Source: Alphaproteobacteria bacterium
GTDB taxonomy: Bacteria > Pseudomonadota > Alphaproteobacteria > UBA2966
Reading direction: 5' to 3'
Assembly (NCBI GenBank): GCA_964291395.2
Contig: OZ219856.1
Coordinates: 2,304,001 to 2,368,000, forward strand
DNA length: 64,000 nt
Below the pieces are notes generated by a model that searched no databases, had not been told where the DNA came from, and saw nothing but the letters and a program-made list of their open reading frames with translations. A program made the translations under genes and the position numbers. Below, in pieces: positions 3,619 through 21,045 of the stretch. The number at the start of each line of letters is the position of its first letter. The stretch's first letter is position 1.

Positions 3619-5280
3619 CTACGCCCCATAGGCCTCGCGGGCCTGGGTCTCCGAGACCAACCCTTCCTTCAGGTCGTTTTCGACGGCGGCGCGGTCGCGG
3701 GCGGTCGGATCTCCAAAGCCGCCGCCGCCCGGATATCGCAGGGTCAACCTGTCCCCGGGAGCGAGCGATATCTCCCGGTGCCCGGTAAAGGGCGCGTCGT
3801 CGTTGACGCGAACGTGCCCGTTCGCTCCTGCGCGGCCGCCGAGCAGGCCGGGCGCTCCGGCATCGTAGCGGCCGCCGATGATCGTCCCCGCGATGGGGTG
3901 AACGCCGCCGTTTCGCAGGACGACCTCCTGTCCCAGTCCGCCCCGGAACCGGCCGGGCCCACCGGAGTCCGCCACGAGAAACTTCTCGTCGCACACGAGA
4001 GGAGATTCGATCTCGAGGAGTTCCACCGGCGTATTCGAGAGATTGGCCGGATAAACCGTGGTCGTCGCCCCGTCCCGGTCGTGGCCCGCGCCCTGCCCGC
4101 CGGCGGCGTTGAAATGCTGAACGAACGGCGCCCCGTCATCCATCTTGCCCGCGAATATCGAGAGCCACAGGGGATAGGTTCCGCAAGGCGCGATGACCTT
4201 GTCCGGCAGCTTCCGCGAAAGCGCCACGAAGACGGCTTCGGCGATGTGATAGACGATGTCGGTGCGCCACATGCACGGCGCCGGGTAGACGGCGTTCAGG
4301 ATCGTGCCCTCCGGTGCCGTGACGGTGAACGGCCGGTAGCACCCGACGTTGTTGGGAATGTGCGGGTGCAGCGCGCACTTCACGCCGAACACCACGTACG
4401 CGTACGTGATGTTGTAGACCGCATTGACGGGCAGATCGACCTGCGGGGAGGAGCCGGTGAAATCGGCATGAATGCGGTCGCCGGAAATCTCGAGTTCGAG
4501 ACGGATGCGCAGCGGATTGCCCGAACGGTCCGTGATGCCGAGATCGAGATCGTGGGCGTACACGCCGTCGGGCACTTCGGCGATCGCCGACCGCATGCTC
4601 GTCTCGCTGTGCGCCATGATCTGGGACGACAGTCCGGTCAGCGACTGCAGTCCCCGCTCCCGCATCGTCTCGCCCAGTCGCCGGCCGCCGACGTGATTGC
4701 ACGCCACTTGAGCCCGCAGGTCGCCGACCACCTTGTCCGGCATCCGTACGTTGCGCTCGACGATGTTGAAGAGATCCCGGTTGGGCTCGCCCGCGACGAA
4801 GAGCTTGGAGATCGGGATGATCAGCCCTTCCTCATAGACTTCGCGCGTATCCGGCGAGGCCAGGCGCCCCCCGATGTCCACGTGGTGCGCCGAACTGGCG
4901 GCGAAGCCGATCAGCTGCCCATCCAGGAACGCCGGCGACGCGACGAAAACGTCCGGCGTGTGCCCCGAGCCGAACCAGGGGTCGTTGGTGATCAATACGT
5001 CGCCGGGGGACAGCGAGTCCGCCGGATGCACCTCGAGGAACTGGTGCATCACCCGGGTCATGGCGCCGATCTGGCCGGGCGTGCAGTGCGTCGCCTCGGC
5101 CATCATCTCGCCGTCGGCGTCGTAGACGGCGCAGGCGTAGTCGTGATTGTCCCGCACGACATGGGAAAACGCCGTCTTTTCCAGCGCGACCGCCATTTCG
5201 TCGGCAACGGCGATCAGGCGCGACCACAGCACCTGGAACGTGATCGGATCGATGTTGGGAATGGGTTTTCGAGACGTCAT
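3619..5280 (-). CDS. Hydantoinase B/oxoprolinase family protein
   Basis: DPITFQV, NDPWFGSGHTPD, HHVDIGG, GDLRAQ, NTPVE, DSGGPGRFRGG, PGGGGFGDP. Confidence 0.93.
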   Translation of the reverse strand: MTSRKPIPNIDPITFQVLWSRLIAVADEMAVALEKTAFSHVVRDNHDYACAVYDADGEMMAEATHCTPGQIGAMTRVMHQFLEVHPADSLSPGDVLITNDPWFGSGHTPDVFVASPAFLDGQLIGFAASSAHHVDIGGRLASPDTREVYEEGLIIPISKLFVAGEPNRDLFNIVERNVRMPDKVVGDLRAQVACNHVGGRRLGETMRERGLQSLTGLSSQIMAHSETSMRSAIAEVPDGVYAHDLDLGITDRSGNPLRIRLELEISGDRIHADFTGSSPQVDLPVNAVYNITYAYVVFGVKCALHPHIPNNVGCYRPFTVTAPEGTILNAVYPAPCMWRTDIVYHIAEAVFVALSRKLPDKVIAPCGTYPLWLSIFAGKMDDGAPFVQHFNAAGGQGAGHDRDGATTTVYPANLSNTPVELLEIESPLVCDEKFLVADSGGPGRFRGGLGQEVVLRNGGVHPIAGTIIGGRYDAGAPGLLGGRAGANGHVRVNDDAPFTGHREISLAPGDRLTLRYPGGGGFGDPTARDRAAVENDLKEGLVSETQAREAYGA

Positions 5281-5284
5281 GACA

Positions 5285-7363
5285 TCACCTCACCGTCACC
5301 ATGATCCACCCGCCGGCATCCGTCACGGCGCCGGCGCCCGGACCGATGACCAGAGTCGAATCGGGCGCTTCCACGATCGCCGGCCCTTCGAACCCGGCAT
5401 CGGGCCCCAGAAGGTCCAGGCGGTACACGTCATGCTCCACAAACGCAGCCTCCTGCGGCGCATAGGCCGGCCGGGTTCCCGTGCGCGCGGCCCGTGCCTC
5501 CCCCCGCCTGCCCGCGAATTTGAGGTCCAGCGACGGCTGCTCGCTCGCGGCGCTGACGATCACCCGCAGCGTCCTCAGTTGCGGCTCCAGATCGTCGTAG
5601 GCATAGCCGTAACGCGCCCTGTATTCCTCGGCGAAGCGTCCGGCGATGCCGTCGAACGGCACGCGGTCTCCCGGCCCGCCGCCGATGTCGAAACGGATGT
5701 TGGAGCCCTGGCCCCGGTAGCACATGTCGAGCGCGCGGGAACAGACGACCGCCGCGCCTTCCCGTGCCGCCCCGACGACGGCCATGCCCTCCGCTTCCAG
5801 TTCGCGGAACATGTCTTCGAGGACGCCCTCGGTCATCGACTCGAGCGGCGCGACGTGGGTCCGCGACACCTCGTAGGAGATCGGCGCGACGACGAACCCG
5901 AGCGCCGAGAACACGCCGGCGCCGACCGGGACGAGCACGCTCGAGATTCCGAGCTTTCGCGCGACTTCCACGGCGTGCACCGGCCCCGCGCCGCCGAACG
6001 CGACCATCGTCGCGGCGCCGGCGTCGCCGCCGTGTTCCGCGATGTGGTAACGCGCGGCGCCGGCCATGTTCTCGTTGACGACCTCGTGGATTCCCCAGGC
6101 GGCCTGCTCGATCGCGAGGTTGAGCGGTTCGGCGACCGCCCGCCGGATGCCCTCCGCCGCCTCGCGCCGGCGCAACCCCATCTCTCCGCCGAGGAAGAAA
6201 CCGGGGTTGAGGTATCCGAGCACGAGGTCGGCGTCGGTGACGGTCGGCCGGTCTCCGCCCAGTCCGTAGCAGATGGGACCCGGATCGGCGCCGGCGCTCT
6301 GCGGGCCGACCCGCACCAGCGCCATGTCGTCGATCCGGGCGATGCTTCCGCCGCCCGCCCCGATCTCGATGACGTTGACGGTCGGCGCGGCAATGGGCGT
6401 TCCGCTGCCCTTCTTGAACCTGTGGACCCGGTCCACCTCGAACTCGGTCGTGATCGGCAACCGTCCCTGCCGGATATGGCAGGCCTTGGCCGTCGTCCCC
6501 CCCATGTCGAAGGACAGCAGTTCCGGCAGATCGGCGCGCTCGCCGATGTGCGCCGCGGCCAAGGCCCCGCCCACGGGACCCGACTCCACCAGCCGCACCG
6601 GATACCGTCCGGCCGTCTCGGCCGAAATCACGCCGCCCCCGGACAGCATCAGGTAGAGCCCGCGTTCGAACGAACGGTTCTTCAGCCGATCGTCGAGGCG
6701 GCGCAGGTATCGTCCGACCAGGGGCTTGACGAACGCGTTGACCACCGTGGTGCTGGTACGGGGGTACTCCTGGATCTCCGGCAGGACGTCCGACGAGAGC
6801 GACAGCGTCATGTCGGGACAGTGACGGGCGGCGAGATCGGCGAACGCGCGCTCGTTGGCGGGATTTGCATAGGAATGAAGAAAGCACACGGCGAGCGACT
6901 CGATTTGCCGCTCGACGAGGGCGTCGAGCACCCGCCGCCCCTCGTCCGCGTCGAGCGGCTGCGCGACCCTGCCGTCGGCGTATACGCGCTCCGTCACTTC
7001 GAAACACAGGTCCCGCGGCACCAGGGCGACCGGATACCGCGCGGTGATGTCGTAGGTGTCGTAGCGGGCTTCCCGCCGCATCGCCAGGACGTCCCGAAAT
7101 CCCCGGGTGGTCACGAGCGCGGTCCGGGCGCCCGTTCGTTCGATCAGGGCGTTGATGACGAGGGTGGTGCCGTGGATGACGTGCTCGGTCGCGCCGAGAA
7201 AGGCGGGACGCCGCCCGTCGATCGCGGCGATGCCCCGGTCCACCGCCTCGGACGGATCGGACGGCGTGGTGAGGACCTTGGAAAATTCCAGGTCGCCGGT
7301 TTCGCCGTCGAGCAGCACGAAATCGGTAAACGTTCCGCCGATATCACAGCCCAGTCTGAACAT
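5285..7363 (-). CDS. Hydantoinase A/oxoprolinase family protein (ATP-binding subunit)
   Basis: DIGGTFTD, HGTT, ESGP, DMGGTT, IGAGGGS, GPQSAGADPGP, FGGAGP. Confidence 0.93.
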   Translation of the reverse strand: MFRLGCDIGGTFTDFVLLDGETGDLEFSKVLTTPSDPSEAVDRGIAAIDGRRPAFLGATEHVIHGTTLVINALIERTGARTALVTTRGFRDVLAMRREARYDTYDITARYPVALVPRDLCFEVTERVYADGRVAQPLDADEGRRVLDALVERQIESLAVCFLHSYANPANERAFADLAARHCPDMTLSLSSDVLPEIQEYPRTSTTVVNAFVKPLVGRYLRRLDDRLKNRSFERGLYLMLSGGGVISAETAGRYPVRLVESGPVGGALAAAHIGERADLPELLSFDMGGTTAKACHIRQGRLPITTEFEVDRVHRFKKGSGTPIAAPTVNVIEIGAGGGSIARIDDMALVRVGPQSAGADPGPICYGLGGDRPTVTDADLVLGYLNPGFFLGGEMGLRRREAAEGIRRAVAEPLNLAIEQAAWGIHEVVNENMAGAARYHIAEHGGDAGAATMVAFGGAGPVHAVEVARKLGISSVLVPVGAGVFSALGFVVAPISYEVSRTHVAPLESMTEGVLEDMFRELEAEGMAVVGAAREGAAVVCSRALDMCYRGQGSNIRFDIGGGPGDRVPFDGIAGRFAEEYRARYGYAYDDLEPQLRTLRVIVSAASEQPSLDLKFAGRRGEARAARTGTRPAYAPQEAAFVEHDVYRLDLLGPDAGFEGPAIVEAPDSTLVIGPGAGAVTDAGGWIMVTVR

Positions 7364-7517
7364 CGGTCGCGCCCGATCCTCCCGCGATGCCCTGCCTCGC
7401 CACACCTTCTCGTATTCGCACCGGTCGGTTCAAGCCGTCGCGGACGTGATAAGCTTTCCGGGCAGCCCGGCACGGCCGCGGGCATCAGGCGCTCCAGGAC
7501 AGGAGGGAGGCGGCGTC

Positions 7518-8891
7518 ATGGACGGAACCGGTCAGGTCAGGCCGCCGGAAGGCCGTTTCGACGGGTACGAAACATCATCGCGCCCGCCGGAGGACGCGGT
7601 TCTGACCCGCGTCGGACCCGGCACGCCCTGCGGCGAGTACTGGCGCCGGTTCTGGTTTCCGGTCGCCATGACCCGGGAGGTGACGGACGTGCCCCTGCGG
7701 ATCCGCATCCTGGGCGAGGACCTGGTCCTGTTCCGGGACGGCTCGGGTCGCTACGGCCTGCTCCAGCTGCATTGCAGCCACCGCAACACCTCCCTGGAAT
7801 TCGGCCTCGTCGAGGAGCGCGGGATCAGCTGCTGTTACCACGGCTGGCACTACGACATCGACGGCACGATCCTGGCGACGCCGGGCGACGCGGACAGCGG
7901 GGTCAAGGACCGGGTGCGTCACGGGGCCTATCCGGTCATCGAATACAAGGGCCTGATCTTCGCCTACATGGGACCGCCGGCCGAGATGCCGCGGTTCCCC
8001 GTGTTCGACTCCTTCGAACTTCCCGACGTCGAGATGGCGCCCTACTCGATCGCCATGCCGTGCAACTGGCTCCAGGTGGCCGAGAACACGATGGATCCCA
8101 TGCACGCGGCGTTCCTCCACTCCCGCGAACGGGACATGCATTTCGGTTCGACCTGGGGCGAACTGCCGCTGATCGAGTGGTACGACGGCGACTGGAAGAT
8201 GAACCTGACCATGACACGCAGACTGGGGGACATGATCTGGGTCACCATCCAGGAGACCGTCTATCCGGCCAACAGCACGGTCGGATACCTGTGGGAGGAA
8301 GGGACGGAGGAGAAGTATTTCACGCGTGTCGGTTTCAACAAGTGGACGGTGCCCCATGACGACACGAACTGCATGGTGATCGCCTGGCGCCACTTTGGCG
8401 GCATCGACGTCAGGGGTATGGGCAGGCCGGAGCTGGTCGGCAAACAGTCGGTGGATTTCCCCGGACAAACGGGCGCCGAGCCCTACCACGAGCGGCAGCG
8501 CAACCCCAACGACTTCGAGGCGCAGGTCGGACAGGGTCCCATCTCCGTGCACGCGACGGAGCATCTGGTCGCCCACGACCGGGGAGTGGCGTTGTTGCGC
8601 AGGCACATCCGGGAGGGGATCGAGGCGGTGCGGCGGGGCGAGAGCGTTCCCCGCCCGCCGCAGGACGGGTCGCCGCTGTCGTGCTACGCCCAGAACACGG
8701 TGCTGCCGGTCGCGGCCCGGAAAGGCCCGCACGACGACCGGCTGCTGCGGGACGTGGCCAGGGCGGTGTTCGATACGGTGGCCTCGGGCGACGGCCGGAC
8801 CGAACCGGAGCGCACCGAATACATCCGGAATTCGCTGAAGCAACTCCCGAGCGATCCGCGATTCCTGCCGGCGGACACCGCCGCCGAATGA
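7518..8891 (+). CDS. Rieske non-heme iron oxygenase alpha subunit (phthalate 4,5-dioxygenase/LigX-like)
   Basis: SD AGGAGGGAGG; Rieske ligands CSH...CCYHGW; mononuclear iron motif ENTMDPMHAAFLH. Confidence 0.9.
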   Translation: MDGTGQVRPPEGRFDGYETSSRPPEDAVLTRVGPGTPCGEYWRRFWFPVAMTREVTDVPLRIRILGEDLVLFRDGSGRYGLLQLHCSHRNTSLEFGLVEERGISCCYHGWHYDIDGTILATPGDADSGVKDRVRHGAYPVIEYKGLIFAYMGPPAEMPRFPVFDSFELPDVEMAPYSIAMPCNWLQVAENTMDPMHAAFLHSRERDMHFGSTWGELPLIEWYDGDWKMNLTMTRRLGDMIWVTIQETVYPANSTVGYLWEEGTEEKYFTRVGFNKWTVPHDDTNCMVIAWRHFGGIDVRGMGRPELVGKQSVDFPGQTGAEPYHERQRNPNDFEAQVGQGPISVHATEHLVAHDRGVALLRRHIREGIEAVRRGESVPRPPQDGSPLSCYAQNTVLPVAARKGPHDDRLLRDVARAVFDTVASGDGRTEPERTEYIRNSLKQLPSDPRFLPADTAAE

Positions 8892-8907
8892 CTCTCGGAG
8901 AGACGGC

Positions 8908-9843
8908 ATGGCGGAGAGCGACCTGAAGATCGCCGTGATGGGGGCCGGCGCGGTCGGCGGGTACTTCGGCGCCCGTCTGGCCGCCGGCGGGACCGACACC
9001 ACGTTCATCGCCCGGGGCGCCCACCTTCGGGCGATTCGGGAGAACGGCCTGCAGGTCCGGAGCCCCCTCGGTGACGTGACCATCGATCCGGCGAAGGCCA
9101 CGGACGATCCGGGCGAGGTCGGACCCGTCGACATCGTTCTGCTGATGGTGAAGCTCTACGACGTCGCGGCGGCCGCGGAACGGATTCGGCCGATGCTCGG
9201 GCCCGGAACCGGCGTCGTGGCGCTGCAAAACGGCGTCGACGCTCCCGACATTCTCGGGAACGCCATCGGCCGTGAGCACGTCCTGGCCGGATCGGTCTAC
9301 ATTCCGGCCATGATCGAGGAGCCCGGCGTCATCGTGCACGGCGGCGACTTCGCCAAAGCCGTCTTCGGAGAGCTCGACGGCGACAGGAGCGACCGCGCCG
9401 AGGCCTTGCTCCGGGCGTTCCGGGATGCCGGCGTCGACGCCGAGATCACGGACGACGTCGAGTCGACGCTGTGGACGAAATTCGTCCTGCTCTCCGCGGT
9501 CAGCGCCACCAACGCCATCACGCGCGGTCCGACCCGTCCGGTGCTCCAGGACCCCGACATGCGCAGGATGTTCACGGACGCCCTGCGGGAGACCGAGGCG
9601 GTGGCACGGGCACGCGGCGTGACCCTGGATCCCGATATCGTCGCCAGGCAGCTCGGCATGGCCGAGGCGTTTCCGGCGGACGTGAAGGCGTCGCTCCTTC
9701 AGGACCTGGAGGCGGGCAAACGCCTGGAGGTCGAGTACCTGAGCGGCACGGTATCGCGGCTCGGCGCCGAGCACGGCGTGGCGACGCCGGTGCACTCGAC
9801 GATCTACGCGGCGCTGAAGCCGTTCATGAACGGGGGCGGCTGA
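8908..9843 (+). CDS. panE: 2-dehydropantoate 2-reductase (ketopantoate reductase family)
   Basis: GAGAVGGYFG, LQNG, LWTKF, SLLQDLEAGKRLEVEYLSG. Confidence 0.85.
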   Translation: MAESDLKIAVMGAGAVGGYFGARLAAGGTDTTFIARGAHLRAIRENGLQVRSPLGDVTIDPAKATDDPGEVGPVDIVLLMVKLYDVAAAAERIRPMLGPGTGVVALQNGVDAPDILGNAIGREHVLAGSVYIPAMIEEPGVIVHGGDFAKAVFGELDGDRSDRAEALLRAFRDAGVDAEITDDVESTLWTKFVLLSAVSATNAITRGPTRPVLQDPDMRRMFTDALRETEAVARARGVTLDPDIVARQLGMAEAFPADVKASLLQDLEAGKRLEVEYLSGTVSRLGAEHGVATPVHSTIYAALKPFMNGGG

Positions 9844-9902
9844 ACCACCGGCATCCGCGTTCGCCGCGGCTCGCCCGAGGCACCGTCCGTGCGGGGGGTG
9901 AA

Positions 9903-9936
9903 GCGAGACTAGGCGTGACTAGGCGAGACTAGGCGA
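9903..9936 (+). repeat. 10-bp tandem repeat (GCGWGACTAG) x about 3.5
   Basis: gcgagactag gcgtgactag gcgagactag gcga read directly. Confidence 0.85.
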
Positions 9937-9945
9937 ACTGAGAAC

Positions 9946-10044
9946 CGGGAGCAGCAGGACGTCATCGCGGCCGCCGGCGCGGACTCGCCGCTCGAGGTTT
10001 CCGATATCTCGCTCCGGGAAGTGGCCATTCACAGAGGGCGATTA
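9946..10044 (+). pseudogene. Internal fragment of a PIN-domain (VapC) toxin
   Basis: Translates REQQDVIAAAGADSPLEVSDISLREVA, resembling the VapC motif VSxISxWE(V/I)A with W->R; no start codon or C-terminus. Confidence 0.6.
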
Positions 10045-10075
10045 CCGCCTCACTGCAATCGGCGATTGCGGAGCA

Positions 10076-10429
10076 TCAGGAACGGTGCACGGCTTCGCTC
10101 GATGATGTGGGCTGTTCTGCATCGCCGAGTCCGCCGAGATGGACTGGCAAGCGGCCGGGGAACTCGACGACCAAATCAAGACGGCCGCCCATTGCCTCGA
10201 CATAGCTTCGAAGGGTCGAGATCATCAGGTCGCTGCGCTTTTCCATCTTGGCAATGGTTGCCTGGCGGATGCCCAGCGTTTCGGCAAGCTGCACCTGCGT
10301 CAACTCCTTGGCTTTCCGCAACTGCCGGAGAGTGAGATACTCCTGATGCAGCCGTTCGGTTTCTGCCTCCATGCGCTCGCGGCGCTCGGGGGCGAGCCCG
10401 GCGATCTTGGCTTTCAGAGTCGTCGGCAT
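10076..10429 (-). CDS. XRE-family HTH antitoxin (HigA-like)
   Basis: LRQLRKAKELTQVQLAETLGIRQATIAKMEKRSDLMISTLRSYVEAMGG; directly downstream of RelE-like toxin. Confidence 0.9.
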   Translation of the reverse strand: MPTTLKAKIAGLAPERRERMEAETERLHQEYLTLRQLRKAKELTQVQLAETLGIRQATIAKMEKRSDLMISTLRSYVEAMGGRLDLVVEFPGRLPVHLGGLGDAEQPTSSSEAVHRS

Positions 10430-10433
10430 CGGT

Positions 10434-10787
10434 CTATCCCTCCATCGTATCGAGATGGCGGTCGAAGCGTTTATCGGCCTTGGCTATGAGCTGGCGGTAA
10501 AACCGTTTCTCGCCGACGCCGGACTTGTCGCCGGCTGCCGGAAGGATTGCTTGGCGATCAGGGCCGAAGGCGAAGAGGACGCGCCGGACGCCATCATCGG
10601 CATTGCACCGCAACTCCTTCATGTTGGCATGCTTTGAGCCTGTGAGCGTGTCGACATGCGGGCGGCCGGGCCGGGGGCCTTCTCGCTCAAGAAGCCCCGC
10701 CTTGACCAGGATGGCATCTTGGACAGCCTCGGGACAGGCATCGAACTCGGTCTCGAATGCGTCAAAGAACGAGACGATCCATTCCAT
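10434..10787 (-). CDS. RelE/ParE-superfamily toxin (Gp49-like), possibly degenerate
   Basis: GRPHVDTLTGSKHANMKELR...GDKSG...RFYRQLI; toxin-first order. Confidence 0.88.
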   Translation of the reverse strand: MEWIVSFFDAFETEFDACPEAVQDAILVKAGLLEREGPRPGRPHVDTLTGSKHANMKELRCNADDGVRRVLFAFGPDRQAILPAAGDKSGVGEKRFYRQLIAKADKRFDRHLDTMEG

Positions 10788-10795
10788 GCGTCACA

Positions 10796-10827
10796 ATAGC
10801 TCAGAGGCTATACAGCCTTCAAGCTAT
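10796..10827. promoter_or_regulatory. Inverted-repeat operator of the RelE-XRE TA operon
   Basis: ATAGCTcagAGGCT-atac-AGCCTtcaAGCTAT (11/14 arm match) just upstream of the toxin ATG in AT-rich DNA. Confidence 0.6.
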
Positions 10828-11116
10828 ATTTCTTAACTCGTCGGGTGGCCTTGTGAAGAGCCAAGTCCGCAAGCCGGGCCAGCTCCGGCTGGATCAATTT
10901 GCGGAGCAGTAAAGACAGGTCATGGCACTCGGAGTGCCGGATCATGTTGAATGTCTGGAGGGCCAACGCCGAGGCCGGCGCCGTCCACCCGCTTCCCGGC
11001 CAACCAAGCGACCGCAAACCGCTGCCGGCCGGGCAAGCTTCTGCGAGACGGCATGTGCCGTGCGACCTTCGCGGCGGCGCCGGCGCTCGTCGTCCGGCCT
11101 CCAGCCTTCACCGGCA

Positions 11117-11166
11117 CGCACAAAAATGTCCGGGGAGACGAGTGACCACTCGCGCATTTTTGTGCG
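11117..11166. promoter_or_regulatory. Nested inverted repeat upstream of hicA (probable operator)
   Basis: Perfect 12-bp arms CGCACAAAAATG / CATTTTTGTGCG enclosing the palindrome CGAGTG-ac-CACTCG. Confidence 0.55.
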
Positions 11167-11178
11167 AGAGTGCCACCC

Positions 11179-11391
11179 GTGAACGGGCGTGAATTCATAA
11201 CGAGAGTGAGAAGGCTGGCGCGCAGGAACGGGATCGCGGTCAGGTTCGACAAGACAAGAGGCAAAGGAAGTCACGGGACCTTGTATTACGGCGAGCGCTT
11301 CACGGTGGTGAAGGACCGCAGGAAACCGCTCAAGGCCAGCACGCTCCGCGGCATGTGCAGACAACTCGGCATCGACCCGAACGACCTTTAG
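11179..11391 (+). CDS. hicA: HicA-family mRNA interferase toxin
   Basis: GTG start; RGKGSHG catalytic His motif; 70 aa, basic; upstream of HicB. Confidence 0.85.
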   Translation: MNGREFITRVRRLARRNGIAVRFDKTRGKGSHGTLYYGERFTVVKDRRKPLKASTLRGMCRQLGIDPNDL

Positions 11392-11403
11392 GGAATTCCG
11401 ATC

Positions 11404-11838
11404 ATGGCGACGCGATACAGCTACCCCATCGACCTTCACAAGGAGCGCACGGGCGGGTTCTCGGTGACCTTCCCGGACTTCGACGAGGCTTTCACGGACG
11501 GCGATTCGTTCCGCGAGGCCATCGAGGAGGCCGCCGACTGTCTCGAGGAAGCGCTCGCGGGCCGCATGGCGCGGCGCGAGGACATTCCCGCGCCGAGCCC
11601 GGCGAAGGGCCGGCCGGTGGCGGTTCCCGGCGCGGTCCTGGCCGCCAAGACGGCCCTCTACGAGGCTCTGCGCGAGCAGCGGCTGTCCAACAGCGCCTTC
11701 GCGGCGGCCCTGGGCGTTCAGGAAAGCGAAGTCCGCCGCATGCTCGACCCCCGCCACGCCACCAAGATCGGCCGGCTGGAGGAAGCCCTGGCGCGGTTCG
11801 GAAAGCGCCTCGTGATCACCGTGGAAGCGGCCGCCTGA
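11404..11838 (+). CDS. hicB: HicB-family antitoxin
   Basis: FSVTFPDFDEAFTDGDSFREAIEEAADCL...IPAPS plus C-terminal HTH (EVRRMLDPRHATKI). Confidence 0.9.
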   Translation: MATRYSYPIDLHKERTGGFSVTFPDFDEAFTDGDSFREAIEEAADCLEEALAGRMARREDIPAPSPAKGRPVAVPGAVLAAKTALYEALREQRLSNSAFAAALGVQESEVRRMLDPRHATKIGRLEEALARFGKRLVITVEAAA

Positions 11839-11879
11839 CCGTCGGTCCGCGCCGGCGCCGGTCCCGGTCCTGCCGCGGT

Positions 11880-12104
11880 CGCGGCTACGTCTTCCCGGCG
11901 GCGCAGCTCGACGAGCGGAACCGGCCGCTGGCGGGACTCGACCGCGTGACCGGGCTGTTCGCCGACGGCCATTCCGCGTGGGTCTGGCTGACCACGCCCC
12001 GGCCGTCGCTCGACGGGGCGGAGCCGCTCGCGCTTCTGGCGCGGGGCGAGGTGGAGCGCGTGGCCGAGGCCGCCCAGGGAGACCGTCAGGGCGACTTTGC
12101 GTGA
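11880..12104 (+). pseudogene. C-terminal remnant of an Xre/MbcA/ParS-type antitoxin (RES-Xre TA)
   Basis: RGYVFPAAQLD...AWVWLTTPRPSLDGAEPLALLARGEVERVAEAA is DUF2384-like; no N-terminus or start codon. Confidence 0.7.
12069..12104 (+). repeat. 36-bp direct repeat, copy 1 (copy 2 at 14317-14352)
   Basis: GCCGCCCAGGGAGACCgTCAGGGCGACTTTGCGTGA versus ...ACCtTCAGG..., one mismatch. Confidence 0.9.
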
Positions 12105-12107
12105 AAC

Positions 12108-12257
12108 TCAGTGGCTACTTTCGTGAAATTCCGCAATCTGGGCGAGCGTTGTCTTGCCGCACTGACGCGGGCCGTGAATCAACACGACCGGCGAATCCTC
12201 GAGCGTTTCGACAAGCCGACTCTCGGCGGACCGGGGATAGAAGACCGGACTCGACAT
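12108..12257 (-). pseudogene. N-terminal fragment of an AAA_14/DUF4143 ATP-binding protein
   Basis: FYPRSAESRLVETLEDSPVVLIHGPRQCGKTTLAQ: Walker A GPRQxGKTT, then stop after about 49 aa. Confidence 0.75.
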
Positions 12258-12259
12258 CT

Positions 12260-12335
12260 GCCAATTGCAAGTTTGGACTTCGGCCGATTGCGAAGTTACG
12301 TCTCCGCCAATTGAAGACAAATCCATCGATTGCAG
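12260..12335. repeat. Phased direct repeats GCC(A/G)ATTG upstream of the AAA ATPase start
   Basis: Copies at 12260, 12283 and 12306 (23-bp period) and a degenerate ATCGATTG at 12325. Confidence 0.6.
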
Positions 12336-12342
12336 GTGAGCC

Positions 12343-12399
12343 GGCGTGGCCGAGGCGGACGGGTTCGTGTTCGCGTCGCGGTCTACGGGCGATAGCTAA
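12343..12399 (+). pseudogene. Short remnant of a RES-domain toxin
   Basis: GVAEADGFVFASRSTGD resembles the RES C-terminal DG(I/F)xYxSR motif; lies downstream of the Xre remnant. Confidence 0.45.
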
Positions 12400-12638
12400 A
12401 GTGGCGCGCTGACGCGCGCCGGGATGGAGATGCCTACCGTATCGTCTGCGGGCGGTGTGCGGGTGACCGGCAGGAGCACGAAATACCGCGGACGAACCGC
12501 CTGATCGGTCGCGGCTATCCGGCGACGGCATGACCAGCCGGCCTTCTCCAACCGACGGTCGCTCGCTCCGATGCTTCGGACCCGCCTTGCAAGGTATTCC
12601 CGTCTCGCCTGAGGGCTCTTCCGGCTGAGCCGGACCGC

Positions 12639-12713
12639 TTGACATGGGAGACTGCGCACCGGCATAGAATAGTTCCTGTATTGGGAACATTATACTTGTC
12701 ACAAAATCGGGAA
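12639..12713 (+). promoter_or_regulatory. Promoter/operator region of higB-higA
   Basis: TTGACA at 12639 and TAGAAT at 12665 (20-bp spacer, suboptimal); palindrome GTTCC-N7-GGAAC at 12672-12688 and a second GGGAAC half-site. Confidence 0.5.
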
Positions 12714-12728
12714 CGGTGTAGATAGCTC

Positions 12729-13022
12729 ATGCGGATCATCGCCAAGAAGACGCTCCGGGAATTCTGGCAGCGTCATTCAGATGCCGAAGAGCCGCTTCTC
12801 GCCTAGTACCGGGAAGTGAAGCAAGCGGATTGGGATACGCCGGCCGCCCTGAAGGAGATGTACGGCAACGCGAGCATCGTTGGCGACAACCGGGTGATCT
12901 TCAACATCAAGGGCAACGACTATCGCCTCGTGGTGAAGATCAATTACCGGCATCGCGTCGTCTACATCCGCTTTGTGGGTACGCATGCCGAGTACGACGC
13001 CGTAGACGTGGAGGAGGTGTGA
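12729..13022 (+). pseudogene. higB: HigB-family toxin interrupted by an in-frame amber codon
   Basis: MRIIAKKTLREFWQRHSDAEEPLLA*YREVKQADW...FNIKGNDYRLVV...FVGTHAEYD; TAG at 12804-12806 where Trp (TGG) is expected. Confidence 0.88.
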
Positions 13023-13023
13023 G

Positions 13024-14241
13024 ATGGCCAATATCAAGCCAATCCGGTCCGAAAGGGACCACGAGGCGGCGTTGGGCCGAATCTCGGAGCTCATGGACGC
13101 GGAGCCGGACAGCCCGGAGGGCGATGAGCTCGATGTCCTGGTCGATCTCGTGGAACTGTACGAAAGCAAACAAGTGCCGATGGGCTATCCGAGTCCGATC
13201 GCCGCGATCGAGTTTCGTATGGATCAGGCAGGTCTGCGCCCCGCAGACCTTGCCTCGTTCATCGGAAGCCGCGCCAAGGTCTCGGAAGTTCTCTCCGGCA
13301 AGCGCGCAATCACCATGCCGATGGCGCGGGCGCTACATGAGCATCTCGGGATTCCGGCGGATGTACTACTGCGGGAGCCGGATGTCGACTTTGACGATCC
13401 GTGCGCCGATATGGAGTGGAGCCGGTTTCCCGTCAAGTCGATGGCAAAGTCGGGCTGGATTCCGGACAGGCCCGATCCAGCGAGACGCGCCGAGCACGTC
13501 ATGCGGGACCTGATCAATCGGGCAGGGGGACCGGACGTCGCGGGCGCCGCGCTCTACCGAAAGAACGATCACGTGCGCGCGAATGCCAAAATGGACCCCT
13601 ATGCGCTCAAGGCGTGGTGCTGGCATGTCCTGGCAAGAGCCAACGAGGACCTTCCGAAGACAGGCTACGAGCGTGGCACCGTGACTTTGGACTTCCTGAC
13701 GAAGGTCGCCCGGCTGAGCTGGTCGGAAGACGGTCCGCGACTGGCGAAGGAATTGCTGGTCAAGCGCGGCATTTCACTCGTGATCGAAAAGCATCTGCCG
13801 AAAACGTATCTCGACGGGGTGGCACTCCGGCTCGGCGACGGCAGACCGGTAATCGGACTCACTCTGCGTTACGACAGAATCGACAATTTCTGGTTCTGCC
13901 TGCTGCACGAGCTGGCCCATGTGGGTCGACACATGGACAACGACAGGGGCGAAGCCTTCGTCGACGACTTCACGCTCCGGAAACTCGAAGGGAGACGGGA
14001 AGACCCCAGGGAGAGGCAGGCTGACGAATGGGCGGAGGAAGCACTTATTCCGCGCTCGGTCTGGGAAGCGAGCGCAGTGCGGGACCGGCCAACGACCATG
14101 GCCGTGATGAACCTCGCCAACGCCCTGCAAGTGCATCCGGCGATCGTCGCAGGGAGGGTCCGAAACGAACGGAAGAACTTCCGGCTGTTATCGCAATTCG
14201 TCGGGACCGGCGAGGTGCGGCGACAGTTCGGCATGTCTTGA
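13024..14241 (+). CDS. HigA-like HTH antitoxin fused to an ImmA/IrrE (M78) metallopeptidase
   Basis: N-terminal IKPIRSERDH...IEFRMDQAGL...SEVLSGKRAIT HTH; C-terminal FWFCLLHELAH (HExxH) and ERQADEWA. Confidence 0.88.
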   Translation: MANIKPIRSERDHEAALGRISELMDAEPDSPEGDELDVLVDLVELYESKQVPMGYPSPIAAIEFRMDQAGLRPADLASFIGSRAKVSEVLSGKRAITMPMARALHEHLGIPADVLLREPDVDFDDPCADMEWSRFPVKSMAKSGWIPDRPDPARRAEHVMRDLINRAGGPDVAGAALYRKNDHVRANAKMDPYALKAWCWHVLARANEDLPKTGYERGTVTLDFLTKVARLSWSEDGPRLAKELLVKRGISLVIEKHLPKTYLDGVALRLGDGRPVIGLTLRYDRIDNFWFCLLHELAHVGRHMDNDRGEAFVDDFTLRKLEGRREDPRERQADEWAEEALIPRSVWEASAVRDRPTTMAVMNLANALQVHPAIVAGRVRNERKNFRLLSQFVGTGEVRRQFGMS

Positions 14242-14316
14242 GGCAACGGGCCGATGAACTTCCACAGCGGACCGGGAGCCGGGCTTTCCTCGCTGCCGCC
14301 GGGCAAGCGGGCCGGC

Positions 14317-14352
14317 GCCGCCCAGGGAGACCTTCAGGGCGACTTTGCGTGA
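14317..14352 (+). repeat. 36-bp direct repeat, copy 2
   Basis: Matches 12069-12104; followed by GTG-initiated TRGYDPERLRA, a possible RES toxin N-terminus. Confidence 0.9.
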
Positions 14353-14506
14353 CCCGCGGCTACGACCCGGAGCGGCTGCGGGCGAGCGGTATCGCCGAGC
14401 TGGCCCGCCTTGCGGTTCGGACAAACGAGGCGGGAGTCAAAGGAATTGTGCAAAAAGTGCTCTGTTATTCCCATATACTCGGGGTAACTGCGGCACAGGA
14501 GGCCTT

Positions 14507-14692
14507 GTGAGCCCCGAGACCCTCGGATACGTCAATCTGGCCGGCATCGTTGCTGTCATCGCGTTCCTGTGGAACCTGCATCGGGACATGCGCGCCATGG
14601 ATGGTCGGATCAACGATCTGGCACGCGAGCTGTCCGAACTCCGCGGCGAATTCCGTGGTCGCTTCGGACTTCCTCTCCCAGCGGAAGAATAA
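14507..14692 (+). CDS. Small membrane-anchored coiled-coil protein (61 aa), unknown function
   Basis: SD CAGGAGG, GTG start; hydrophobic LAGIVAVIAFLW then heptad-like MDGRINDLARELSELRGEF. Confidence 0.6.
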   Translation: MSPETLGYVNLAGIVAVIAFLWNLHRDMRAMDGRINDLARELSELRGEFRGRFGLPLPAEE

Positions 14693-14746
14693 TCAAGACG
14701 GACGCAGAGAAGCGCATCATTCAACCGGCAGCGTAAGGCCGGACGA

Positions 14747-17080
14747 TCACGAAAATCGTCGGGCCTGCGCCCGCCGAATGGCGCGCCAGACGTTCGACGG
14801 GGTCGCGGGCATGTCCACGTGGCGCACGCCCAGAGGCGACAGCGCGTCGACGACGGCGTTGATCACCGCGGGCGCGGAACCGATCGTGCCGGCCTCTCCG
14901 GCGCCCTTGATGCCGAGCGGGTTCGTGGCGCACGGGATCTCGTTGTAGGCGAGATCGAAAAAGGGGAAATCGTCGGCGCGCGGCATGGTGTAGTCCATGA
15001 AGGTCCCGGAAAGAAGCTGCCCGCTCTTCCCGTCATACACACAGTGCTCCATCATCGCCTGCCCCGCGCCCTGGACGATCCCGCCGTGAACCTGGCCGTC
15101 GACGAGCAGGGGATTGATCAGCTTGCCGAGATCGTCGACCACCGTATAGCGAAGCACCTCGACGACGCCGGTCTCCGGGTCCACCTCGACTTCGCAGACG
15201 TGACAGCCGTTGGGATACGTGAGACCCGGCGGCATGTACTCGTGCCGCTCGGCGATGCCGAAGCCCAGCTCCTCGGGCAAGCCGCGCGGCGTGTAGGCCC
15301 GCGCCGCGATCTCCTCGAACGCCACCGACCGATCGGTGCCGCGGACCACGGCGGCACCGTCCGCGATCTCGATATCGGCCTCCGAGGCCTCCAGCATGTG
15401 GGCGGCGATCAGGCGGCACCGGTCCGCGACCCGCGCGGCCGCGCGATCGACCGCCACGCCGCCGACCGTCACGGAGCGCGAAAACCCGGTCCCGGTGCCG
15501 TAGGCGACGACGTCGGTGTCCCCCTGGACCAGGCGGACCCGATCGAGCGGCAATCCCAGGTGCTCCGATACGATCTGAGCGTAAGCCGTGGGGTGCCCCT
15601 GCCCGTTGTTCTGGGAGCCGATCAACAGGGCGACCCCACCGTCGCCGTCGACCCGGATCTCGGCCATCTCGTCGGTGCCGCCGCCGCACGACTCGACGTA
15701 GGCCGCGAGACCAAAGCCGCGCAGCTTTCCGTCGGCCGCGGAAGCCGCCCGGCGCGCCGCGCGGTCCCGCCACCCGGCGTTGCCCAGGGCGTCCGACAGG
15801 TTCCGGGAAAAGTCGCCGCTGTCGTAGACCTCCCCCAGGCAGGTCTCGTGGGGCATGGCCTCCGGCGGAATGAAATTCCGCTCCCGGATCTCCGCCGGCG
15901 ACATCCCGAGCTCCCGCGCCGCCGCGTCGACCGCACGCTCGAGCGCATAGCAGACCTCGGGCCGGCCGGCGCCCCGATAGGCGTCCACCGGAACCCTGTT
16001 GGTGAAGACGCAGCGCACGCGGACGTGGGCAACCGGAATCCGGTAGAGCCCGGTCAGCAGGTTCGAGCCCGCCACGGTCGGTATCATGGGACCGAACGTG
16101 GAGAGATAGGCCCCCATGTCCGCGACGGTCGAGGCCCGGATGGCGAGGAACCGGCCCTCGCCGTCCAGCGCCAGCTCGACGGTCGTCACGTTGTCCCGGG
16201 CATGCGTATCCGAAACGAAGGCGTCGGAACGGTCCCCGCTCCATTTCACCGGTCGTCCGAGTTTCCTCGCCGCCCAGAGGACGAGGGCGTGTTCGGGATA
16301 GATGTTCTTCATCCCGAATCCGCCCCCGACGTCGGGCGTGACGATGCGCAGCCGGGATTCCGGAACGTTCAACACGCCGGCGCTCAGGCTACGGCGCATG
16401 CGATGCGGAATCTGATTGACGGCGTGAAGCGTGTACCGGCCCGTGCCTTCGTCGAATTCGCCGATGGCGCCGCGCGGCTCCATGGAGTTGACGACGATCC
16501 GGTTGTTGACGACCCGCAACCGGACCACGCGGTCGGCATCCGCGAAGGCCGCGTCGACGCCGGGCGCATCGCCCTTCGACCAGTCGACACAGACGTTTCC
16601 CGGCGCTTCGGGCCAGAGCTGCGGCGCATGGCTCTCGACCGCGTCCGCCGTATCGGTCACGAACGGCAGAGTCCGATAGGCGACCTCGACCGCCTCCACC
16701 CCGTCGCGCGCGGAGTCCACGGATTCCGCGACGACCAGGGCGACGCAATCCCCCACGTAACGCACCCGATCGCCCGTGAGCGCCGGCCGCGGCGGCGTCA
16801 CCACTTGGGCACCCGCCATGCGATCCGCGCCCGGACACGGAAGAGGACCCAATCCGTCCGCGGCCAGGTCCGCGTGCGTGAACACACCCAGGACGCCCGG
16901 CCGCGACCGGGCCTCGGCGGTGTTCATGCCTGAAATCTCGGCGTGCGCGTGGGGCGAGCGCAGGACGGCCGCGTAGGCCTGCCGCGGCAGATCGATATCG
17001 TCGTTGTAGCGCCCGCGGCCCCGCAGAAGGCGTTGATCCTCGATCCGGCGGACGGGTTGCCCGATACCGAACTTACCCAC
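14747..17080 (-). CDS. Xanthine dehydrogenase family molybdopterin-binding subunit (CoxL form II-like)
   Basis: RIEDQRLLRGRGRY, LRSPHAHA, DVGGGFG, AYRGAGRPE, GQGH, GIKGAGEAG. Confidence 0.92.
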   Translation of the reverse strand: MGKFGIGQPVRRIEDQRLLRGRGRYNDDIDLPRQAYAAVLRSPHAHAEISGMNTAEARSRPGVLGVFTHADLAADGLGPLPCPGADRMAGAQVVTPPRPALTGDRVRYVGDCVALVVAESVDSARDGVEAVEVAYRTLPFVTDTADAVESHAPQLWPEAPGNVCVDWSKGDAPGVDAAFADADRVVRLRVVNNRIVVNSMEPRGAIGEFDEGTGRYTLHAVNQIPHRMRRSLSAGVLNVPESRLRIVTPDVGGGFGMKNIYPEHALVLWAARKLGRPVKWSGDRSDAFVSDTHARDNVTTVELALDGEGRFLAIRASTVADMGAYLSTFGPMIPTVAGSNLLTGLYRIPVAHVRVRCVFTNRVPVDAYRGAGRPEVCYALERAVDAAARELGMSPAEIRERNFIPPEAMPHETCLGEVYDSGDFSRNLSDALGNAGWRDRAARRAASAADGKLRGFGLAAYVESCGGGTDEMAEIRVDGDGGVALLIGSQNNGQGHPTAYAQIVSEHLGLPLDRVRLVQGDTDVVAYGTGTGFSRSVTVGGVAVDRAAARVADRCRLIAAHMLEASEADIEIADGAAVVRGTDRSVAFEEIAARAYTPRGLPEELGFGIAERHEYMPPGLTYPNGCHVCEVEVDPETGVVEVLRYTVVDDLGKLINPLLVDGQVHGGIVQGAGQAMMEHCVYDGKSGQLLSGTFMDYTMPRADDFPFFDLAYNEIPCATNPLGIKGAGEAGTIGSAPAVINAVVDALSPLGVRHVDMPATPSNVWRAIRRAQARRFS

Positions 17081-20424: not shown

Positions 20425-20819
20425 TCAGCCCTCGGCCGGCAGCCAGGCGACGTCGTAGCGTGCTATCCGGCGATCGCCGGTCACGATCGTCAGGCCGTCG
20501 GCAAGCGCCTGCGCGATCAGCATGCGATCGAACGGGTCGCGGTGAAGGAACGGCAGATCCGCCAGCCGGTCGACATGCCTGAACGCGATCGGCAGCGGGC
20601 GGAACCCGCTCTCGGCGACCCCGTCCTCGAAGCGAGCCGCGAGTCGGAGCTTGCCGAGGGAGACCTTGACCGCAGCCTCCCACGCCGAGGCCATGCTGAC
20701 ATGGACGATATCGGCCTCGGCGATGGCGCCGCGGGCGGCCGCGCCAAGCCGCTCCGGCGCGGCACGCCACCAGAGAAATGCGTATCAAGCAGCAGGCGGT
20801 CCGTCGGCGTCCGCGCCAT
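20425..20819 (-). pseudogene. vapC: PIN-domain VapC toxin, frameshifted near 20780
   Basis: LLLDT in one frame; AFLWW...VSMASAWEAAVK...HRDPFDRMLIAQA in another; loss of 4 nt from ACG CAC GCA would explain it. Confidence 0.85.
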
Positions 20820-21045
20820 AAAACGCGTCTTCCAGCTCGCGGGAAAGCGGGGCATCGAAGTCGTCGGCCATCCAGACCTTGCCCTCCCAGCCGCCGGGCT
20901 CACGCGGCAGGCGTGCGGGTTCCAACGCGACGAGACGCGCCCGGGGCCGGTTGTTCTTGGCGATGACGATCTCCTCTCCGCGCGCCACGTCCTCGACCAG
21001 ACGCGACAGGTGAGTCTTCGCCTGATGGATATTGATGGTACGCAT
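20785..21045 (-). CDS. Phd/YefM-family antitoxin (VapB)
   Basis: MRTINIHQAKTHLSRLVEDVARGEEIVIAKNNRPRARLV...DDFDAPL. Confidence 0.92.
   Translation of the reverse strand: MRTINIHQAKTHLSRLVEDVARGEEIVIAKNNRPRARLVALEPARLPREPGGWEGKVWMADDFDAPLSRELEDAFYGADADGPPAA

Follow-up and report, generated by a model that had tools for sequence, protein, structure and literature searches.

The panE–coxL interval of genome G000 holds a small islet of toxin–antitoxin (TA) and defence genes, and constitutes a clear, ordinary instance of the known TA-spot pattern rather than a new kind of system. The window analysed comprises 64,000 nucleotides (nt) of contig C1 of this genome, and the islet occupies its positions 9844-14746 (4,903 bases), with two intact TA pairs, one broken defence pair, and four gene scraps, namely 84 bases of vapC, 75 codons of an Xre/ParS-type antitoxin gene, 13 codons of a RES toxin gene, and 63 codons of an AAA_14 gene. 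The junction between panE and the coxL-like gene is probably a permissive slot, into which small TA and defence cassettes have been inserted successively, each of them truncating its predecessors. An earlier note, made from the letters of the window, had described the region as a hotspot where modules land on the remains of earlier ones, and this description holds: the slot is found in three states, and the islet itself contains two nested structures. Gene families were scanned with Pfam, NCBIfam, and PADLOC profiles, and RNA families with Rfam.

One slot in three states

The islet is flanked by the following genes, which are convergent around it:

8908-9843, + strand: panE (ketopantoate reductase), left flank; PF02558 E 1e-39, PF08546 E 1.5e-28
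14747-17080, - strand: coxL-like molybdopterin oxidoreductase large subunit, right flank; PF20256 E 1.2e-85, PF02738 E 2e-78

A DNA search with a 9-kb region was run against 41 genomes (29 further matches exist beyond those listed), and among the matches listed the adjacency of panE and coxL is found in two genomes besides G000. The DNA of panE is 87% identical to that of G005 and 75% identical to that of G003, and the coxL-like gene reaches 87-88% in G001, G002, and G005. In G003 the slot is empty, with 21 nt between the alignments of both flanks and open reading frames (ORFs) that overlap in frame. In G005 it measures 1,497 nt and carries a single Fic-domain gene (PF02661 E 3.2e-14; PADLOC SoFic E 5.6e-48). 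No islet DNA is shared at the panE–coxL junction of either genome, and three genomes display three slot states. The accretion proposed in the earlier note survives this comparison, the arrangement not being conserved in relatives.

A second slot is found elsewhere in the genome, where C1:42970-54000 and C2:43657-56000 are 96-98% identical over 9.3 kb around a non-homologous centre. This centre contains a hicAB cassette and a response-regulator fragment in C1 (47.7-49.4 kb), and vapB, a truncated vapC, a repeat, and a 435-aa ORF in C2 (48.2-51.3 kb). The second slot has two states whether these are allelic or paralogous.

The concentration of toxin genes in the islet is high. Across the 4.16-Mb genome, 41 matches were obtained with six Pfam families of toxins, and the islet is the sole 5-kb stretch with three of these families (within 2.6 kb), where a uniform model expects 0.016. 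Three toxin matches are also found in one other 5-kb stretch, two of them being pieces of a single PIN gene. This density shows clustering and not novelty, since TA loci are known to cluster.

A repeat split by a TA insert

The left part of the islet consists of these features:

9844-9953, no strand assigned: dispersed repeat, left half, long form, with three tandem 10-nt units at 9903-9935
9945-10028, + strand: internal fragment of a vapC (PIN) toxin gene, ~28 codons, by DNA match to a paralogue on C1
10076-10429, - strand: XRE-family helix-turn-helix (HTH) antitoxin, 117 aa, intact; HTH_3 E 3.7e-9 (36.9 bits), HTH_37 E 5.9e-8
10434-10787, - strand: Gp49-family (HigB/RelE-fold) toxin, 117 aa, intact; PF05973 E 8.6e-19, 67.8 bits, cut-off 23.9
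10796-10827, no strand assigned: candidate operator upstream of the Gp49 toxin gene, formed by an imperfect inverted repeat with 14-nt arms that are 79% complementary
10975-11070, no strand assigned: dispersed repeat, right half, joined to the left half in uninterrupted copies

The dispersed repeat is intergenic and composed of 2-4 tandem 10-nt units (GCGAGACTAG). Its core has 36 copies in the genome (e.g., G000:C1:1086972-1086995 and C2:49245-49268) against 0 in a reversed-genome control, and its long form has 5 copies, 4 of which abut TA genes. At C1:511 kb and C1:1928 kb, the sequence matching the window up to 9961 runs directly into a match to 10977-10995/11033. Because these two long copies continue uninterrupted, the copy in the window is split by an insert of ~1.02 kb, made up of the vapC scrap and the Gp49/XRE operon together with the region upstream of this operon. 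The left half in the window is 92% identical to C1:511373-511515, which carries ~22-25 nt of the panE 3' end, indicating that a segment of the panE locus was copied there before the split. None of 5 congeners was found to have the long form, and the insertion that split the repeat therefore occurred in this lineage.

The vapC scrap corresponds to the PIN fragment of the earlier note. It is 95% identical in DNA to C1:1577747-1577830, that is, codons ~22-49 of an intact vapC gene (G000:C1:1577497-1577892, 131 aa, PF01850 E 9.8e-15) which has phd/yefM upstream, the pair spanning C1:1577497-1578143. The scrap itself has no Pfam or NCBIfam match and, as an 84-nt internal piece that comes with no antitoxin gene, does not amount to a VapBC module. 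The adjacent RelE-like/XRE pair was also read correctly. Its two genes share a strand, with the toxin gene upstream and a gap of 4 nt, which is the gene layout of a predicted HigBA-like type II TA system. The Gp49 toxin gene is 78% identical in DNA to a copy found at another locus of G005 (on C2).

The hicAB cassette

The second intact TA pair is represented by:

11071-11876, + strand: hicAB cassette (hicA 11170-11391, hicB 11404-11838)
11117-11128/11155-11166, no strand assigned: perfect 12-nt inverted repeat, ending 4 nt before the hicA start codon

The hicB product matches HicB_lk (PF15919) with 34.3 bits, above the cut-off of 27, and has a weak C-terminal match to HTH_37; its gene lies directly downstream of hicA. 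The hicA product stays under its cut-off (HicA PF07927, 24 bits against 27). Its sequence contains KGSHG, which we take to be the HicA motif. The identity of the pair, already named in the earlier note, is accepted on context, the HicA score being below the cut-off. The 806-nt cassette is 95% identical to C1:47786-48592 and has sharp ends at both loci. These ends carry 29-nt imperfect direct repeats, and the right one abuts an antitoxin gene that has lost its HTH half. Identical pieces of hicAB are also found among the contigs of an RNA-library run (X4).

A palindromic operator had been attributed to each complete module of the islet. All three modules have candidate operators of this kind, but only that of hicAB has perfect arms, of 12 nt: the repeat upstream of the Gp49 gene is imperfect, and so is the inverted repeat at the HigB-like gene described below.

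The paralogous hicAB at ~47.8 kb of C1 (L017:3825-4457, - strand) presents a peculiarity of its own. The stop codon of its hicA gene reads CAG, resulting in a single 210-aa ORF with both HicA and HicB domains, a toxin–antitoxin fusion.

Remnants of Xre-RES genes around a later block

Several features in the right part of the islet derive from Xre-RES genes or are enclosed by them:

11880-12104, + strand: 3' remnant of an Xre/ParS/MbcA-type antitoxin gene, 75 codons, HTH half absent
12062-12104, + strand: copy A of the 43-nt direct repeat D1, covering the last part of the antitoxin gene up to and including its TGA; identity to 14310-14352 is 93%
12108-12326, - strand: ORF with a 5' fragment of an AAA_14/DUF4143-type ATPase gene, 63 homologous codons (homology 12136-12340)
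14310-14352, + strand: D1 copy B, running into the initial 13 codons of a RES toxin gene (14350-14388)

The antitoxin remnant has weak family scores (PF09722 E 0.0039, 17.6 bits against a cut-off of 24.5; NF049845 E 0.003). In a public genome scan, its residues 6-79 show up to 89% identity to antitoxins encoded at 13 loci, mostly proteins of 150-235 aa whose stop codon overlaps the start of a RES toxin gene (GTGA). The RES toxins in these loci begin with VTRGYDPxRLRA, and the relatives of the remnant include genes of metagenome-assembled genomes (MAGs) labelled Chloroflexota, Paracoccaceae, and Spirochaetia. In 60 relatives, no match to the remnant was found beyond a weak one.

The segment that follows D1 copy B, VTRGYDPERLRA at 14350-14388 of the window, agrees with the starts of RES genes in four of the foreign loci (L026-L029). 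No RES sequence follows D1 copy A at 12104, where the sequence is unrelated, and the single PF08808 match of the genome lies on C3. The islet thus has an antitoxin without its N-terminal HTH domain and 13 codons of a RES toxin, which together do not make an Xre-RES TA module. The earlier note had seen Xre antitoxin and RES remnants here and a second Xre/RES junction further on. Of the first, the Xre tail of 75 codons stands, but no RES gene comes after it; of the second, the 13 RES codons stand, but the "second Xre" is merely a 43-nt copy of the antitoxin 3' end.

Between both copies of D1, which are the only two of this 43-nt sequence in the genome, lies a block of 2.2 kb (12105-14309) with the ATPase stub, 310 unexplained bases, a HigB-like gene, and a peptidase gene. 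The block starts exactly after the antitoxin TGA, and on its far side stands D1 copy B followed by the RES start. The stub matches AAA_14 (E 5.8e-5) and the PADLOC candidate system PDC-S01 (E 1.8e-12). It corresponds to the AAA_14 fragment identified before, and has 94% identity to C1:455580-455784 (455 kb), where a full-length gene begins. Loose contig ends are found at 12136-12140 in all 4 of the sequencing runs considered below. Judged from its borders, the arrangement fits an insertion of the block into one Xre-RES operon that duplicated a short homologous stretch.

The PD-Lambda-2-like pair

The broken defence pair consists of two genes in this block:

12729-13022, + strand: HigB-like gene of PD-Lambda-2_A type, interrupted in frame by a TAG (12804-12806)
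13024-14241, + strand: fusion of Xre-HTH and M78 (ImmA/IrrE) peptidase, 405 aa, intact (PD-Lambda-2_B type); PF06114 E 1e-6, HTH_3 E 1.8e-5

The pair had been recognised in the earlier note as an interrupted higB with a higA-IrrE gene, and both the TAG and the intact second gene are found as described. The portion of the HigB-like gene after the TAG matches PF09907 with E 1.1e-28, and the PADLOC profile PD-Lambda-2_A (E 1.9e-43) is covered in full length, 1-97/97, only if the TAG is read through. All three full-length homologues (in G028, G140, and G055) have a W at the position of the TAG. The peptidase matches PD-Lambda-2_B (PDLC03982) over positions 1-396/402 with E 4.3e-142, and its HELAH motif is present. 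It shares 87% aa identity with the protein of G028, a member of another family, and of 300 other genomes of the class, 3 have full-length relatives with at least 77% identity, each of these genomes being from a different family. For component C of PD-Lambda-2 there are 68 nt between the stop codon of the B gene and D1 copy B, and no ORF there matched PADLOC.

At DNA level, the block 12651-14299 is 86% identical to G028, where both genes of the pair are intact, with an integrase fragment and an IS256-type transposase gene as neighbours. The third position varies in the close relatives, being occupied by a stub of a cyclase of the cyclic-oligonucleotide-based anti-phage signalling system (CBASS) type in G028, whereas G140 has a putative AAA_14-like ATPase, encoded convergently, and G055 a putative membrane repeat protein.

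In the locus of G028 (L020, G028:C1:3624000-3636000), at 3791-8111, an integrase N-terminal fragment precedes the intact PD-Lambda-2 A/B-like pair, which is followed by the first ~60 codons of the CBASS-type oligonucleotide cyclase (PADLOC E 2.1e-13), cut by the IS256-family transposase gene. This suggests that a pair of HigB-like and Xre-peptidase genes can front a CBASS operon. A further trace is found in the congener G005, 8 kb from its panE on C1 (L013:14878-15200), as a 244-nt scrap that matches, with 89% identity, the last part of the HigB-like gene and the beginning of the peptidase gene of the window. It adjoins another, putative Xre-peptidase-like ORF and a low-GC ORF, and this neighbourhood therefore constitutes a second variable patch in G005.

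Origin of the cassettes

The islet is a mosaic, its parts having their nearest relatives in different places. Three pieces of the islet, namely the hicAB cassette, the ATPase stub, and the vapC scrap, have paralogues with 94-95% identity on the same contig. Matches at other loci of G005 are more distant, with 70-78% for Gp49/XRE and 86-88% for hicAB. The composition of the islet is likewise mixed, with segments ranging from 45% to 77% GC. Cassettes would arrive by horizontal transfer or from paralogous sites of the same genome, the latter being proposed because of the three pieces with copies of 94-95% identity on the contig. They could then become established through recombination by the host, using short or imperfect homologies, with no need of a recombinase encoded in the islet. 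Once inserted, Gp49/XRE, consisting of a predicted ribosome-dependent RNase of RelE fold and an HTH antitoxin, would act as an autoregulated addiction module, and the same role is conceivable for the HicA RNase with HicB. Two intact pairs of this kind may make the slot hard or costly to delete, while neighbours that have no live toxin would decay.

It has also to be considered that the mosaic was built elsewhere, on a plasmid, on an integrative element, or in a sister strain, and arrived in a single event, either through its panE and coxL flanks, by homologous recombination, or on an element whose integrase was later deleted. Such an import is unlikely, while keeping more weight than the remaining alternatives. 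The vicinity of the G028 pair to an integrase fragment and an IS256-type transposase would agree with it, as would the acquisition by way of mobile genetic elements (MGEs), followed by streamlining, that is proposed in the available part of a study on Photorhabdus (Belot, Payelleville, Jurenas, Rocha, Van Melderen 2026, Mol Biol Evol, PMC13617665). The recurrence of the same junctions in runs of three studies moreover shows an arrangement that is stable in the population. On the other side, of the 6 genomes compared in the genus, this one alone has the long form of the split repeat family, and the repeat next to panE was copied to C1:511 kb together with ~22-25 nt of panE before it was split, so that this step happened in place. 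The paralogues of three pieces on the same contig also speak against an import of the finished mosaic, and no integrase remnant was found in the interval with Pfam.

A working defence island?

The islet could alternatively be a working anti-phage island maintained by selection, with modules that cooperate in abortive infection. In its favour are the defence profiles matched here, PD-Lambda-2_A, PD-Lambda-2_B, and PDC-S01, and the cargo of the congener G005 in the same slot, SoFic. PD-Lambda-2 protects Escherichia coli against lambda-vir, as described in the part of that work drawn on here (Vassallo et al. 2022, Nat Microbiol, PMC9519451), which also describes a third gene, P4-antitoxin-like, as needed for defence, and toxicity of B when overexpressed alone, rescued by A. 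Against a working island, the A gene has an in-frame stop, the ATPase gene is a stub of 63 codons, and the third component needed in E. coli is absent. Additionally, TA systems rarely cluster with other defence systems, as far as the consulted portion of the Photorhabdus study goes (Belot et al., PMC13617665). Selection for a working island is accordingly improbable as an explanation of the whole.

The earlier note had considered a defence or stress island, and what remains of this idea is the presence of the A and B genes, the PDC-S01 fragment, and the SoFic gene of the congener, but with a broken A gene, no third gene, and an ATPase reduced to a stub. To judge by its sequence, with A interrupted and a third gene lacking, the pair has probably ceased to work in defence. 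That B is intact next to a broken A is itself unexpected, because in E. coli B alone is toxic and A rescues.

Borders and mobility genes

The borders of the cassettes leave room for another mechanism, in which a recombinase encoded elsewhere reads short border sequences (for instance, the ~40 nt with which the Xre antitoxin gene ends) in an integron-like fashion with neither intI nor attC in cis. D1 delimits the 2.2-kb block, whose border coincides exactly with the stop codon of the antitoxin gene, and homology breaks at this stop, or not more than 4 nt from it, in 2 of 12 aligned foreign loci (L025 and L030). The sharp ends of hicAB at two loci, with their 29-nt imperfect direct repeats, would fit the same mechanism. 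These repeats are, however, 72% identical in GC-rich DNA and may be due to chance. No second copy of D1 was found downstream of the Xre genes in the 13 foreign loci, nor any further copy elsewhere in the genome, and an antitoxin gene kept after the loss of its toxin explains the breaks at the stop codon equally well. The window has no tyrosine recombinase, and the dispersed repeat folds no better than shuffled sequences (z +2.28). This explanation is thus very doubtful, and hardly better is the prospect for the broader proposal that a route free of any recombinase in cis moves TA and defence cassettes between slots by means of border sequences (the D1 tail and the repeat of 10-nt iterons). If true, cassette movement would represent an integron-like exchange system made of different parts.

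Other roles were considered for the dispersed repeat and rejected. As an attC-like hairpin it fails, since all 200 of 200 shuffles fold as well at that z of +2.28, with two covarying pairs in 4 sequences only. A tie to tRNA genes was discarded as well, only 2 of the 36 core copies lying within 300 nt of one.

Neither integrase nor transposase families were found with Pfam among 35 ORF queries from 431-33172 of the window, in line with what the earlier note had reported. These queries were made in two sets of 18 and 17, the second leaving out ORFs shorter than 70 aa or without a pattern of GC content higher in third than in second codon positions (GC3>GC2). PF00589 tyrosine recombinases have 6 matches in the genome, none in the window, the nearest on the contig being ~740 kb away. 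None of these 6 provides an intI in the window, and no attC-like element turned up, no dedicated search for attC having been made. The 64-kb window has no tRNA genes either, whereas an island targeting tRNA genes would have one at a border, along with an integrase. The undescribed acquisition route suggested in the earlier note is not borne out: no evidence for a new mobility mechanism or acquisition route was found, the junctions reveal none, and the clustering and erosion of TA modules have been described by Belot et al. 2026.

Assembly support

The assembly was tested with contigs from four public runs aligned to 8900-15900, of which X1-X3 belong to three studies and X4 is the RNA-library run. 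Pieces with 0 differences cover the junctions of repeat, vapC, and XRE (9847-10116, X3), of repeat and hicAB (11005-11394, X1), of antitoxin tail and ATPase stub (11976-12228, X3), the point where the PD-Lambda-2-like block begins (12353-12748, X1), and the end of this block through coxL (14208-14787, X1; 14522-14926, X3). The panE border is bridged by 9557-9861 (X2) with 2 differences. The idea of accretion survives this test too, its junctions being bridged in runs from three studies. An assembly chimera joining TA genes of several metagenome organisms, for which the contamination estimate of 9% and a summed depth of the TA modules far above the flanks in metagenome runs (relatives sharing them) might be invoked, is very unlikely and the last of all explanations to be favoured, because identical contigs from the runs of three studies bridge six of the junctions.

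Some joints in the aligned contigs could be mistaken for simpler alleles of the slot and were rejected as such. Those from 9932/9946 to 10977 (X2, X3) come most likely from paralogous copies of the repeat, and those from 9694 to 14840 and from 14388 to 14843 have only 21 letters on one side.

Points against successive insertion

Successive insertion into a permissive slot remains the preferred explanation, and the following observations weigh against it. The adjacency of panE and coxL is kept in three genomes only, on which the "core" status of the junction rests; G001 and G002 have other genes beside coxL, and the best coxL match of G004 has 66% identity. The mean GC of the islet (63.4%) equals that of the genome (63.9%) and is below that of the flanks only (67-70%), and low GC was therefore rejected as a mark of foreign origin. 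Nor does the core of the dispersed repeat mark TA sites across the genome, another candidate that was rejected, with 2 of 36 copies within 2 kb of toxin genes against a random mean of 1.2. For the second slot, C2 could be a co-assembled second strain instead of a paralogous replicon, in view of the 9% estimated contamination.

D1 equally fits two separately acquired Xre-RES modules that were eroded from opposite sides. As far as the letters go, it cannot tell a split operon from two modules, because the stretch is almost as conserved between unrelated genomes. Under either possibility, later arrivals sit atop earlier remains. The TAG at 12804-12806 rests on assembled sequence, position 12805 not being among the positions reported for the aligned contigs. 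Finally, one of the runs may be the source sample of the genome, so that the support for the junctions is not fully independent, and no intermediate allele of the slot was seen in the aligned contigs.

Other features of the islet and its surroundings

Besides the modules and scraps described so far, the islet contains:

14507-14692, + strand: gene for a small single-pass membrane protein, 61 aa, with a strong Shine-Dalgarno sequence (AGGAGG) 4 nt before its GTG start

This ORF, also listed in the earlier note, has no family match in Pfam, NCBIfam, or PADLOC. It has 15 homologues with 53-97% identity, and distant copies are found at other loci in G002 and G005. Because of these homologues and copies, it is judged to be a real gene. 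Homologues with 82-97% identity are encoded on metagenome contigs, two of them named in their sources as hypothetical proteins of Defluviicoccus sp. MAGs.

Two segments, 12341-12650 (310 nt) and 14389-14506 (118 nt), have no match in the genome, its relatives, or the family libraries, and may be the last traces of still older cargo. Neither Pfam nor NCBIfam gives anything for the 35-aa tail taken for a second "Xre", a 55-aa ORF after D1 copy B, and several antisense ORFs. A search of Rfam over 8000-17000 (E<=1) returned only sX9 below threshold, with 23.6 bits against a gathering score of 44.

The surroundings of the islet have a housekeeping character, with genes for a hydantoinase, a Rieske oxygenase, dprA, topA, and an RNB-domain ribonuclease (RNase R/II-type). 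A further intact phd/yefM-vapC pair lies 6 kb from the islet, at 20428-21045 (- strand), between an unannotated ORF on one side and dprA/topA on the other.

Comparison with known systems

The closest parallel is found in the TA systems of Photorhabdus which, in the part of the study available here, cluster in small intervals between core genes, in 12 of 80 as the sole genes there, and form 14 co-localised pairs where 2.67 are expected (Belot et al. 2026, PMC13617665). Repeated acquisition at one place is described, together with frequent erosion, mostly by pseudogenisation of the toxin. The islet shares the defining traits of these spots, with a variable interval between core genes, co-localised TA modules, and eroded copies. 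The differences are of scale and detail: that work deals with Photorhabdus at gene level, whereas the junctions of the islet (the split repeat and the 43-nt duplication) are legible to the single base, and its 4.9 kb still contain remains of four earlier modules. Co-occurrence of TA and defence genes is rare there, to the extent covered by the same part, whereas the islet has a PD-Lambda-2-like pair and a PDC-S01 stub.

A second parallel is given by the defence hotspots of core genomes, one of which had no detectable MGE in 68.0% of cases according to the portion of the study considered (Hochhauser, Millman, Sorek 2023, PLoS Genet, PMC10121019). The slot is likewise fixed between conserved genes and carries different defence cargo in different genomes. 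Those hotspots, as presented there, were drawn from more than 1,300 E. coli genomes, and many of the hotspots still contain integrases, whereas here three genomes are compared and the content is mostly TA modules and debris.

As in PD-Lambda-2, the first gene of the broken pair is HigB-like and the second a fusion of Xre-HTH and peptidase, both matching their profiles end to end, whereas the islet has no third gene and its A gene is interrupted by the TAG. With Xre-RES systems of the ParST/MbcTA type the islet shares the C-terminal toxin-binding domain of the antitoxin, but its antitoxin and RES remnants are 2.2 kb apart, with unrelated genes between them. Chromosomal integrons rich in TA cassettes likewise form non-essential arrays, in which small, promoter-bearing TA cassettes follow one another head to tail. 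The islet differs from them in having no intI and in a dispersed repeat that forms no stable hairpin.

Seen against these systems, the islet is a compact record, resolved to the base, of the cycle of TA acquisition and erosion that has been deduced from pangenome statistics. This record comprises an empty site, an alternative cargo, two nested insertions, and modules in conditions from intact to a 39-nt stub. The intact peptidase gene beside its stop-bearing HigB-like partner additionally offers a natural experiment on the roles of the PD-Lambda-2 genes in a second lineage.

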